Positions 57,343 to 60,361 of a stretch of 64,000 bases of DNA are shown piece after piece (within the stretch, counting starts at the first letter, position 1; each line of letters opens with the position of its first letter). Under the pieces are notes generated by a model that worked only from the letters and a program-made list of their open reading frames with translations, did no database searches and was not told the DNA's origin. The position numbers were made by a program, and so were the translations under genes. Origin of the DNA: Polyangiales bacterium (GTDB lineage: Bacteria > Myxococcota_A > Polyangia > Polyangiales > Polyangiaceae); NCBI GenBank assembly GCA_038231275.1, contig JBBRLQ010000029.1, positions 37,675 through 101,674 on the forward strand. The letters are read 5' to 3'.

Positions 57343-58071
57343 ATGAGGCGACTCCGCGGTCGCGCCGCCCTCGCGTGCGCGCTCTTCGTGCTCGTCGTGG
57401 GCTGTCGGAAAAAAGAGAAGAGGCCGCTCGAAATCGAGGCGGGTCCGCCGCAGGCTGAAGCGACCGCCGACGTCGACGCGAAGGAGACCGTCCAGGTCAT
57501 CGTGTCGGTCTACCCCGTCACGTGCGACGCGAGCGCGGCGGCGCGCGGATGGACGGCGTGCCGTGAGGCGAGCGGCGGCTATGGCAAGGTCTACTCCTGC
57601 GCGGAGAAGGCGCTCCGCGAGTCACGTGGGGCGCTGGCGAGCCTTCGTCCGTCGACCCCGCGCCACGCCGCGTGCGCCGACCAGGTCGACAAGGCCGCGG
57701 TCACGATGCTCAACACCACGCCGCAGTTCTTCTCGGACGTGACCACGTGGCTGCAGGAGAACCACGACGCGCTCGCGAAGGCGCTGGAGACGATGCCGCT
57801 CGGCGAGGCGTGCCGCGCGTCGAAGGATCTCTGCGCGCGCGAGCCGCACGACTACGACGACGTGTACAAGGCCATGCGGATGCACTCGCTCGACATGATC
57901 GAGTGCACGACGACGCTCTTCCGGTGCGGGCAGAAGGACGCGATGGATTGCTGGCTCGGCAACGTCGTGCCGCGCCTCGGCGTCGCGTGCGCAGGAACGG
58001 CGAACCGCACCGGCGCGACGCCCGACGATCTCCTCTACGTGCGCGAGACGGGCACGCCGATCGCGCGCTGA
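57343..58071 (+). CDS. Cys-rich lipoprotein
   Basis: VVGC lipobox; about 10 Cys in mature part. Confidence 0.75.
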   Translation: MRRLRGRAALACALFVLVVGCRKKEKRPLEIEAGPPQAEATADVDAKETVQVIVSVYPVTCDASAAARGWTACREASGGYGKVYSCAEKALRESRGALASLRPSTPRHAACADQVDKAAVTMLNTTPQFFSDVTTWLQENHDALAKALETMPLGEACRASKDLCAREPHDYDDVYKAMRMHSLDMIECTTTLFRCGQKDAMDCWLGNVVPRLGVACAGTANRTGATPDDLLYVRETGTPIAR

Positions 58072-58078
58072 CGCGGCA

Positions 58079-58861
58079 TCAGAAGGCGACGCCGGCGCCC
58101 GCCGTGAGCGCGCGCTCGCCGGCGAACGCCCACTCGACCGAGACGTCAATCGGAGCGAGCGCGAGGACCACGCCGAGCGCGGGTTGGTAGTGGAATTTGT
58201 CATTGCCGGTGAGCGCCTGGCCACGCTGTGTCCACAAGACCGGACCGCCGAAGATGCGGCCCGCGACGTACGGCGTCACGGGGCCGAAGGTCTTGCCGAG
58301 CGTCAGGCCGCCGCGCACGTCATAAGCGGTGAAGCGCGCGGACTCGCCACGCGGCGACGCCGTGCGCGCGGCCGATGCGCCGGCGCTGATGCTGCCGAGG
58401 ACGAACGGCCAGGCGCCCTTCTCGTCGACGAGCCGATGCGCGTACGCGCCAAAGAAGAGCCACCCGGGACCCATCGCGTGCGACTCGTCGGTGTCGAGGC
58501 TGCCGTCGGCGATGCCCCCCGCACCGAGCTGGGCGACGCCGCGCGCCCCGATCGGCATCTCGCCCGACACGACGACCGCGTGGCGCGAGAAGTCGGCTCT
58601 CACGCCACCATCGAACGCCAGGACCGTGCGCGCGTAGCTATAGGCGACCGCGACGCGCGCGATCGTCTTCGCGCCTCCGTGGCCTTCGTCACCGCCGCAC
58701 GTCGTCACTCCCGTCGGACCGACGGGCGGGGAGAGGCCTCAGGCGAACGCCTCGCGAGGCCGAGCGATCCCGAAGGCGAGGAGCGACGCGAACGACGCGA
58801 CGGCGAGGCGCGCGACGGAACGCGCCGGAGGGTTATGAGCTGCCAATGACCGTGAGTGCAT
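58079..58861 (-). CDS. Putative selenocysteine-containing outer-membrane beta-barrel protein (TGA 58739-58741 = Sec41)
   Basis: Signal peptide ...ASLLAFGIARPREAFA, in-frame TGA, then GLSPPVGPTGVTTC continuing into ORF 58079-58708; amphipathic strands and C-terminal ...AGAGVAF. Confidence 0.7.
58710..58726 (-). promoter_or_regulatory. Candidate bacterial SECIS hairpin
   Basis: mRNA CCCGUC-GGUCC-GACGGG starting 12 nt 3' of the UGA; GGUC at apex as in E. coli fdhF SECIS. Confidence 0.65.
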
Positions 58862-58942
58862 CGCGCGCAGGAGTCTAACACTCAGATATCGTTCAAAAAC
58901 ATTTCTTGTTGCACATTGTCGTACCTCGGACCACATTACCCC

Positions 58943-60361
58943 ATGTTCCGACGCGCCTTCCTCCACGCCCCCCTCCTCTTGATCCTGGGCCTCGCCGCCG
59001 CGTGCAGCGCCGCCACGGAAAACGCGTCGTCCGACGACTCCGATCTCACCGGCGGTGATACCGCGACGGTCGATCTCGCGACGCAGGCGACGACGTCGCT
59101 CTACGTGGCGATCAGCGCGAAGACCTCGTCGAAGGTGACCGACGCCCTGGTCGCGGCGGCTGCGCGCGGCGTGCCCACGCGCGCGATCGTCGTCGACGGG
59201 AGCTTCGACGCGACGTGGACGCTCCAGCAGCACCTTGAGTCGAGCGGCGTGAACGTCGACGTCCGCGCCGCCTCTCCGGCGCCGACGGTCCTCGCGATCG
59301 CGGACGGCACGGCACTCGTCGTGACCGGCAAGACGGTCAAGCGCGAGACCGCGAGCGCCGTGGTCAGCGGCTTCTCGAAGAAGTTCGACGACGCGCTCGG
59401 CGACGGCAGCGCGGCGCGCCCCGGCGCCTTCATCGCGGCGGAGACCGTGAAGGTCCTCCCGATGCCCGATTCCGGCGACGATCGTCTCGCCGAGCTCATG
59501 GCCACCGCGCAGCACTCGATCGACCTGTCGATTTACGAGCTGCAGGAGCGCCGAATGGTCCACGCGCTCCTCGACGCGGCCGCGCGCGGCGTCACCGTGC
59601 GCGTAATGCTCGAGCCTCGCACCGTCGGCGCCGCGAACTTCGATCCGGTCAGCAAGGAGCTCACCGCCGGCGGCGTGAAGGTCACCCCGACGCCGCCCGC
59701 CTTCGACACGCACCGTAACGTCGACCACGCGAAGTTCTGCATCCTGGACGACAAGGAGCTCCTCTACGGGACCGGCAACATGGTCAAGAGCAGCATCGGC
59801 AGCGTTAGCCTCGCGCCGTACCAGCTCCGCGATTTCTGGATCGAGGACGGGCGCAAGGCGAGCCTCACCGCCGCGCGCGCGCTCTTCGATGCGGATCTCG
59901 CGCGGAAGGACACGACCGGCATGGACATGAGCGGGTTCGTGCTCTCGCCCGACAACGCCGACGGCAAGATCACCGCGCTCGTCGACGGCGCCACCAAACG
60001 CCTCCTCGTCTACAACCAGTCGCTCAACGACGCGGATCTCATCGCGCGCCTCATCAAGGCGCAATCGCGCGGCGTCGACGTGCACGTGCTCCTCGGTTAC
60101 CAGCCGGGCTTCGGCGGCGCGCCACCCGCAAACGACGACACGATCAACAAGCTGAAGGCCGGCGGCGTGAAGGCCGCGTACCTCAAGGCGCACTACCTCC
60201 ATGCCAAGGCGATCGTCGCCGACGACAAGGTGTACCTCGGCTCGCAGAACTTCACGAACGGTGGCCTTCGCGCCAACCGCGAGCTCGGCGAGATTTTTGA
60301 CGACGCCACGCTCGTGAAGACGGTCGTGACGACGTTCCAGAAGGACGAGTCCGCGCAGTAG
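58943..60361 (+). CDS. Phospholipase D superfamily lipoprotein
   Basis: HAKFCILD and HAKAIVAD HKD motifs, GSQN..NRE; AAAC lipobox; extra degenerate N-terminal PLD-like domain. Confidence 0.9.
   Translation: MFRRAFLHAPLLLILGLAAACSAATENASSDDSDLTGGDTATVDLATQATTSLYVAISAKTSSKVTDALVAAAARGVPTRAIVVDGSFDATWTLQQHLESSGVNVDVRAASPAPTVLAIADGTALVVTGKTVKRETASAVVSGFSKKFDDALGDGSAARPGAFIAAETVKVLPMPDSGDDRLAELMATAQHSIDLSIYELQERRMVHALLDAAARGVTVRVMLEPRTVGAANFDPVSKELTAGGVKVTPTPPAFDTHRNVDHAKFCILDDKELLYGTGNMVKSSIGSVSLAPYQLRDFWIEDGRKASLTAARALFDADLARKDTTGMDMSGFVLSPDNADGKITALVDGATKRLLVYNQSLNDADLIARLIKAQSRGVDVHVLLGYQPGFGGAPPANDDTINKLKAGGVKAAYLKAHYLHAKAIVADDKVYLGSQNFTNGGLRANRELGEIFDDATLVKTVVTTFQKDESAQ

Follow-up and report, generated by a model that had tools for sequence, protein, structure and literature searches.

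The question raised by positions 58,079 to 58,861 of the window (that is, of the whole 64,000-nucleotide stretch of DNA that was analysed) is whether an in-frame TGA on the minus strand ends a gene or encodes a selenocysteine (Sec) within it. On that strand an ATG at 58861 opens 40 codons ending in REAFA, which are followed by TGA at 58741-58739 and then by 219 codons that begin GLSPPVGPTGVTTC and end GVAF, directly before a stop codon TGA at 58079-58081. An initial annotation of this DNA had proposed that the open reading frame list splits a single gene at this point, that the 40 codons ending in AFA stand directly before the TGA, and that a Cys follows at position +15 of the mature protein; rereading the sequence bears this out. 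The listed downstream piece opens at GTG 58708 and encodes 209 residues (MTTCGG...) without a signal peptide, and the sole Cys of the window protein is precursor residue 55, which corresponds to mature residue +15. The features of the gene, each with what it rests on, are as follows.

58079..58861, minus strand: complete gene for a predicted 260-residue precursor with one Sec; homologues continuous across the TGA
58742..58861, minus strand: signal peptide, codons 1-40, core about L19-I31, c-region ARPREAFA; hydropathy, signal peptidase I type
58739..58741, minus strand: Sec codon UGA (codon 41), predicted mature residue 1; codon usage at 59 homologous loci and selA/selB co-occurrence
58658..58741, minus strand: Gly/Pro-rich N-terminal tail, mature residues 1-28, with Sec1 and Cys15; low model confidence
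58710..58726, minus strand: bSECIS upper stem-loop, 7-bp stem, GUC loop at 58717-58719, encoding PVGPTG; covariation and loop codon GGT
58697..58699, minus strand: partner Cys, precursor residue 55 and mature residue 15; a single further Cys among mature residues 1-30 at the same 59 loci
58082..58657, minus strand: ten-stranded beta-barrel, mature residues 29-220, ending in Phe; AlphaFold and conservation
58872..58880, minus strand: possible extended -10 element, TGTTAGACT; an 81-bp gap between divergent genes, in which no full promoter was found

A word-based search returned 47 related proteins and an exhaustive search 398 clusters at 50% identity; among the best 150 of these 398 clusters, which were examined, most relatives are 180-230 residues long and start just behind the TGA position. 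Only 41 of 195 aligned proteins extend at least 12 residues upstream of the Sec site, and in these the Sec column holds Cys (39 proteins, including P0001, read as C), Ala (one) or Ser (one). At the DNA level, 67 loci (L022-L088) were read: 30 plus 8 from a phylum sample of 401 genomes, 11 from a collection of species genomes and 18 from metagenomes. Three duplicates, two partial loci (L079 and L080) and three loci whose site codon encodes G, F or D (L047, L049 and L084) were set aside. The initial annotation had proposed to look among homologues for TGA or TGC/TGT at this codon behind an upstream signal peptide, and such homologues make up all 59 of the remaining distinct loci: directly after an AxA signal peptide, 49 have TGA and ten have TGC or TGT, and the next codon encodes Gly in every case. 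Trp at the Sec site was found at none of the loci read. In 20 further genomes, three of which repeat earlier loci, the TGA form occurs 12 times and the Cys form eight times.

Named records carrying the gene belong to the Myxococcota (Polyangiaceae, Kofleriaceae and others) and to the Krumholzibacteriota, where 9 of 101 genomes match, with TGA in all nine; one cultured species, Chondromyces apiculatus DSM 436, carries both the TGA form and selA. The family is patchy, matching 37 of the 401 genomes of the phylum sample though selA is present in 247 of them, and the gene is single-copy in the source genome. Plasmid and phage collections gave no match, and among 8000 candidates there were no longer or fused forms (504-2000 residues), which is weak evidence on that point. 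Elsewhere in the family, L121 (G503:C5:663378-663977 and upstream) has a Cys directly before the TGA (C-U), so that its signal peptide may be cut elsewhere or its tip may be CU.

The initial annotation had named a downstream SECIS as a requirement without locating one, and a suitable hairpin is in fact present at 58710-58726, its loop opening 19 nt after the UGA and its folding energy being -10.6 kcal/mol. In the bSECIS model given in Figure 2 of PMC13188914 the loop has 3-9 nt, the stem has 4-16 bp, the distance from the UGA is 16-37 nt, a G stands in the first two loop positions, and the minimum free energy (MFE) is at or below -7.5 kcal/mol; the window hairpin agrees with all four criteria of that figure. 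Over 41 distinct TGA sites, aligned without gaps, the stem is paired in 93.9% of cells, and in 24 cells both partners have changed; covariation scores 0.287, as compared with 0.130 in shuffled alignments (0 of 500 as high) and at most 0.119 for slid registers, related sequences inflating such scores. The loop Gly is encoded by GGT at 47 of the 49 TGA loci, as compared with 10% GGT among barrel Gly codons, and the Gly right after the UGA is GGT at only one of the 49. The pairing persists even where changes in the stem alter the encoded peptide (PVGPTG, PAGPAG, PGGPPA), and none of the ten Cys loci has this hairpin at the corresponding position. Two TGA loci have a damaged stem, namely L053 and L046 (G354:C6:74969-75493), the latter with an apparent frameshift near the C-terminus that reflects either decay or an assembly error. 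Folded alone, the 42-nt SECIS region is no more stable than shuffled versions of it (z -0.40), and the MFE structure predicted for it departs slightly from the hairpin shared by the family. The strict hairpin pattern follows 48 of the 169,804 TGA triplets of the genome and control triplets at the same rate; because the pattern is rare per site yet not specific to TGA, only conservation of the hairpin counts. The family is a clean natural experiment on SECIS constraint, in which the hairpin fixes the loop codon, shapes the peptide (PVGPTG or PGGPPA) and appears to decay after Sec-to-Cys changes.

The source genome (9.28 Mb, 69% GC, 94% complete) has the Sec machinery for which the initial annotation had proposed to search: selA and selB are adjacent on contig C13, a gene for tRNA-Sec (selC) lies about 1.3 kb from selA and scores 66.3 bits against a cut-off of 47, and selD is on contig C64. 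Across genomes the form of the site tracks this machinery, with selA and/or selB present in 44 of 44 TGA-form genomes (28/28, 12/12 and 4/4) and neither gene in any of 16 Cys-form genomes (0/7, 0/8 and 0/1), where four of the eight Cys-form genomes of the second set are only 59-83% complete and kin are not independent. Among the first 37 genomes, 28 of them TGA-form, selA is found in 27 of the latter and selB above its cut-off in 26, with one more just below it, and the two genomes with neither Sec nor Cys at the site have selA. The 20 newer genomes give a selA match in 12 of 12 TGA-form genomes (one in pieces) and selB in 10 of the 12.

The source genome has a second selenoprotein, which belongs to a known family: a membrane-anchored redoxin (G000:C49:29315-29674, minus strand) whose UxxC motif contains an in-frame TGA, again with a hairpin at a similar distance. 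A genome-wide selenoprotein scan yielded 43 candidates, none convincing, and also missed the window gene; no FdnG-type formate dehydrogenase scores above the cut-off in the source genome. On contig C12 of this genome (G000), a dense cluster of at least 16 tRNA genes lies at about 227400-229200.

A true stop codon, whether of a pseudogene, through a sequencing error or between two genes linked by re-initiation, would agree with the habit of gene callers of opening most homologues just behind the TGA. Nevertheless, the TGA persists together with the hairpin and the upstream signal peptide at 26-85% protein identity in two phyla, and the hairpin covariation, the site pattern over the 59 loci and the co-occurrence with selA/selB each contradict this reading, which has very little probability left. 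The initial annotation had allowed that the TGA might be a sequencing error or a strain-specific nonsense mutation; its recurrence at an identical position, in 49 of the 59 distinct loci and in nine of nine members from the second phylum, indicates that it is neither chance nor error. (The contig of the probable source run has no alternative letters over 58309-59300, a check that is not independent; the contigs of four DNA runs gave nothing beyond the source, and no RNA data set was listed as containing the sequence.) Judging from this comparative pattern, the TGA of the window gene is almost certainly read as selenocysteine: SelB and tRNA-Sec would decode UGA codon 41 by way of the hairpin 12-29 nt downstream.

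A different role for the codon would be that of a selenium-dependent translation gate, the function of the barrel being independent of the residue inserted. The UGA lies directly behind a disposable signal peptide, so that failed readthrough yields no barrel, as a gate would have it. Genomes without Sec machinery nonetheless keep both a Cys at this site and the partner Cys (10/10 and 8/8), which implies selection on the residue itself and makes a mere gate very improbable.

What, then, becomes of this residue once the protein is exported? In the 59 loci, Ala occupies position -1 in 56 and position -3 in 55, with R, E, H or F at -2, and the last seven signal positions include a charged residue or Pro in every one; in a pattern test (h-region plus A-x-A) the signal reads as one cleavable by signal peptidase I. 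Bacterial lipoproteins, by comparison, carry the lipobox pattern [LVI][ASTVI][GAS]C, which occurs in none of the 59. The A-x-A context and the lack of a lipobox point to cleavage by signal peptidase I that leaves Sec first; such a cut of the exported precursor after A-F-A is highly likely and would make Sec residue 1, with a free alpha-amine. Lipidation of the +1 residue, giving a Sec- or Cys-anchored lipoprotein, has in its favor that in Cys forms a Cys comes right after a signal peptide with small residues before it; the missing lipobox, the charged residue or Pro in the c-region and the residues at -2 all speak against it, as does the fact that an integral barrel has no need of a lipid anchor, so that lipidation is exceedingly doubtful. 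As the predicted first mature residue, Sec would have to enter the chain while the protein is being exported, and signal peptidase would then expose it.

The residue appears to have a fixed companion. In every one of the 59 loci, mature residues 1-30 contain one partner Cys and no more, at +3 (UxC) in 16 loci and otherwise at +12 to +16, and the three loci where the Sec site holds G, F or D have no partner Cys either. That one partner is always kept, and that both residues are lost in these three, suggests that the two act as a pair. (One of the three, L084 at G305:C120:24633-25247, is the second family member of a genome in which the TGA form is present as well.) A quick IQ-TREE tree of 94 barrel sequences requires seven Sec/Cys changes, four of them forced by well-supported branches, and in it Cys forms that still have a PVGPT-like peptide adjoin Sec forms. 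This arrangement fits repeated Sec-to-Cys conversion; the tree is unrooted and 36 of its 91 branches are open, and hence it does not give the ancestral state. Lineages without Sec machinery would use a Cys-Cys pair in the same protein.

The pair would be attached to a barrel. AlphaFold gives a mean pLDDT of 84.6 for the precursor and of 92.7, with a pTM of 0.87, for the mature form, in which residues 29-220 are modelled as ten strands ending in Phe; this supports the outer-membrane beta-barrel with an aromatic terminal residue that the initial annotation had proposed. Hydropathy alternates along the barrel, many inward-facing positions are Gly, Ala or Ser, and a terminal F is present in 73% of aligned members. 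The best fold matches are pOmpT (7xw0; Z 14.8, rmsd 3.5, 193 residues aligned), OpcA (2vdf; Z 14.2, rmsd 3.5, 183 residues) and Dot/Icm porin I (9nh1; Z 13.9), which share the fold at rmsd 3.5-4.0 over 183-193 residues but only 8-11% of the sequence, and none of which is known to have a Sec/Cys tail. Foldseek matches include autotransporters, FapF and porins; nitrobindin-like soluble ten-stranded barrels also reach Z 10-12. In Pfam and NCBIfam scans, eight of 135 aligned members match OMP_b-brl weakly at E<=0.01 and five match Autotransporter weakly (best E 3e-6), in addition to single chance matches. That residues 29-220 form a ten-stranded barrel in the outer membrane is, on the strength of the model, very probable.

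In mature numbering, D141, R143, R162, F164, G166, P167, W170, D181, H184, Q186, E203 and E209 are near-invariant. Outer-membrane barrels usually have both termini in the periplasm, and if this one does, then in the model these residues cluster towards the extracellular end of strands 6-10. Such a charged site invites the proposal that the barrel is an enzyme of acyl transfer or hydrolysis with the N-terminal Sec as its covalent nucleophile, which the Sec's own alpha-amine and the Asp/Arg/His/Glu site would activate, as in surface enzymes of OmpT-like fold. The near-invariance of D141, R143, R162, D181, H184 and E209, and the ten-stranded protease pOmpT as top fold match, are in keeping with it. 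Identity to pOmpT is nonetheless 10%, no omptin or other enzyme family appears among the Pfam matches of the 135 members at E<=0.01, and an obligatory second Cys would be more typical of a redox cycle. This proposal, ranked third among the readings of the residue's function, is improbable.

The tail itself is modelled with low confidence, the pLDDT block means for mature residues 1-30 being 51, 64 and 86, with values below 50 for residues 1-5. In the fold searches, whose ranges report first and last aligned residues only, model residue 1 is aligned with Hbp 1096, NalP 801, EstA 320, AIDA-I 978 and EspP 1019, within segments that are presumably pore-filling linkers or helices; this is a weak hint that the tail may lie in the barrel lumen. 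With a little less than even confidence, the tail can be envisaged as entering the lumen towards the conserved Asp/Arg/His/Glu site; the many inward-facing Gly, Ala and Ser residues of the barrel speak for the same placement.

The best explanation overall, with about an even chance of being right, is that of a secreted selenoprotein with a Sec1/Cys15 redox pair on an outer-membrane barrel. Sec1 and the partner Cys would form a reversible selenenyl-sulfide (Se-S) pair in the flexible tail, whose redox chemistry at the outer membrane would be of the thiol type: the pair would react with an oxidant or with a disulfide as substrate, Cys15 would resolve the intermediate, and periplasmic thioredoxin-fold (TlpA/redoxin) proteins would re-reduce the pair. 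Taken as a whole, this cycle of pair, chemistry and re-reduction could equally well hold or fail. Among 126 automatically chosen neighbours (21 hand-added proteins of 147 being left out of the count), five are AhpC/TSA-redoxins (at L026, L028 twice, L053 and L061), where the 20 such genes of the 9.3-Mb source genome, with 8,000 genes assumed, would lead one to expect about 0.3. A second neighbour set contains no AhpC/TSA protein among 42 and one thioredoxin, so that the neighbourhood lends modest support to a redox role. There is no conserved operon among the loci, the largest neighbour cluster spanning four of them. Three neighbours are themselves selenoproteins whose genes have an in-frame TGA at a catalytic position: SelD with U (UxxK; L060:3198-4127), Prx with TxxU (L061:4537-4929 and upstream) and a UxxC redoxin (L062:4335-4574).

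The main rival to the redox pair is metal binding, in which Sec1, through its selenolate and free alpha-amine, and the partner Cys would together bind a soft metal or a metalloid as a chelate (with Cu, Zn, Ni, Hg, As or Te), the barrel serving as a metal-gated channel or a surface sink. As a matter of general chemistry, an N-terminal Cys or Sec whose amine is free forms a chelate; 16 loci have a UxC tip, and scattered neighbours such as TerC (L025, L073), a cupredoxin (L069), TerB (L023) and SBP_bac_11 (L094) would suit such a role. Yet no mer, cop or ars operon context was found among 189 neighbours scanned, the partner spacing ranges from 2 to 15 residues, and the tail has no further conserved His, Cys or Met ligand, so that metal binding, while possible, is rather unlikely. 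At L094 (G410:C753) a Cys-form member lies between the SBP_bac_11 gene, encoding an ABC solute-binding protein, and permease and ATPase genes.

A bolder form of the redox reading is that the Sec1 tail threads the ten-stranded barrel to the charged site near its extracellular mouth, thereby serving as a selenium-based redox shuttle or catalyst that works across the outer membrane, that is, as a single-chain trans-outer-membrane selenol/thiol relay recharged by periplasmic thioredoxin-fold proteins. This is a speculative and rather doubtful proposal; were it true, signal peptidase would create the active site.

How does this protein compare with known systems? With the bacterial SelB/bSECIS selenoproteins of PMC13188914 (Fig. 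2A) it shares an in-frame UGA, a hairpin with a G-first loop at 19 nt, Cys homologues and dependence on selA/selB; it differs in that its Sec is predicted to come first after signal cleavage and to sit on an outer-membrane barrel. The initial annotation did not recognise it among the usual selenoprotein families, in agreement with the 119-family table of PMC13188914, a 2026 review, where no entry matches by name or by model; the families of Haft and Tolstoy (2025) were compared as that table presents them. The only outer-membrane barrels in the table are the GSU2204 family (NF041027) and the FCYXU TonB-dependent receptor (NF049945). These are likewise selenoproteins with an outer-membrane barrel, whereas the window protein has about 220 residues and ten strands and is without a CXXCH or CxxU motif; neither model matches any of 135 members at E<=0.01 or any of 14 at E<=1.

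COG4313/PF13557 channels (Pput2725, 4rl8), FapF and autotransporter beta-domains (Z 8.7-12.7), which are 12-stranded, are also barrels whose N-terminal segment lies within or at the pore. PF13557 matches none of 135 members at E<=0.01, its fold similarity being Z 8.7. The read-through protein had no match in Pfam or NCBIfam, and no family in either names the protein or its relatives; one PDB sequence search with family profiles found nothing at E<=1, and another gave a single chance match at E 0.45. BSepDB (PMC13326102), which searches for previously reported families only, has no barrel, porin or outer-membrane entry in its main text and the available part of its supplement, and the available portions of deep-Sep (PMC12013277) and of bioRxiv 10.1101/2022.07.06.499078 hold no description of the family. 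Nor does the rest of the literature searched, which takes in few subscription journals and whose supplements could bear on priority.

The selenoprotein family is real and apparently uncatalogued, combining a known decoding mechanism with a new architecture, namely a Sec predicted as first mature residue of a ten-stranded outer-membrane barrel together with an obligatory partner Cys. Because gene callers leave out the first 40-50 codons, and the signal peptide with them, the family is invisible to homology-based catalogues. Its recognition adds a selenoprotein family in two phyla, Myxococcota and Krumholzibacteriota, and with this unusual architecture the chemistry of selenium at the cell surface can be tested directly, one of the carriers being in culture.

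Upstream of the gene, the initial annotation had placed an extended -10 box; its sequence does stand exactly 10 nt before the ATG, but the promoter is unproven, since a sigma-70 scan of 57900-59200 found none (its single terminator-like match lies inside the gene). In 6 of 59 loci the upstream DNA contains a TGnTAnnnT pattern, which none of 59 coding controls does. GC3 is 0.53 in codons 1-15 and 0.92 in codons 16-40, the low value making TTG 58846 a possible alternative start. The neighbours in the window are a protein without a Pfam match and a PLD-like lipoprotein. The former, encoded by a convergent gene (57343-58071, plus strand), is Cys-rich and lipoprotein-like and is kept in L052, the closest relative. 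The latter is encoded by a divergent gene (58943-60361, plus strand) with PLD-like (PLDc_2) domains, which is syntenic only with L052 and whose start is likely ATG 58943 rather than the listed GTG 58856.
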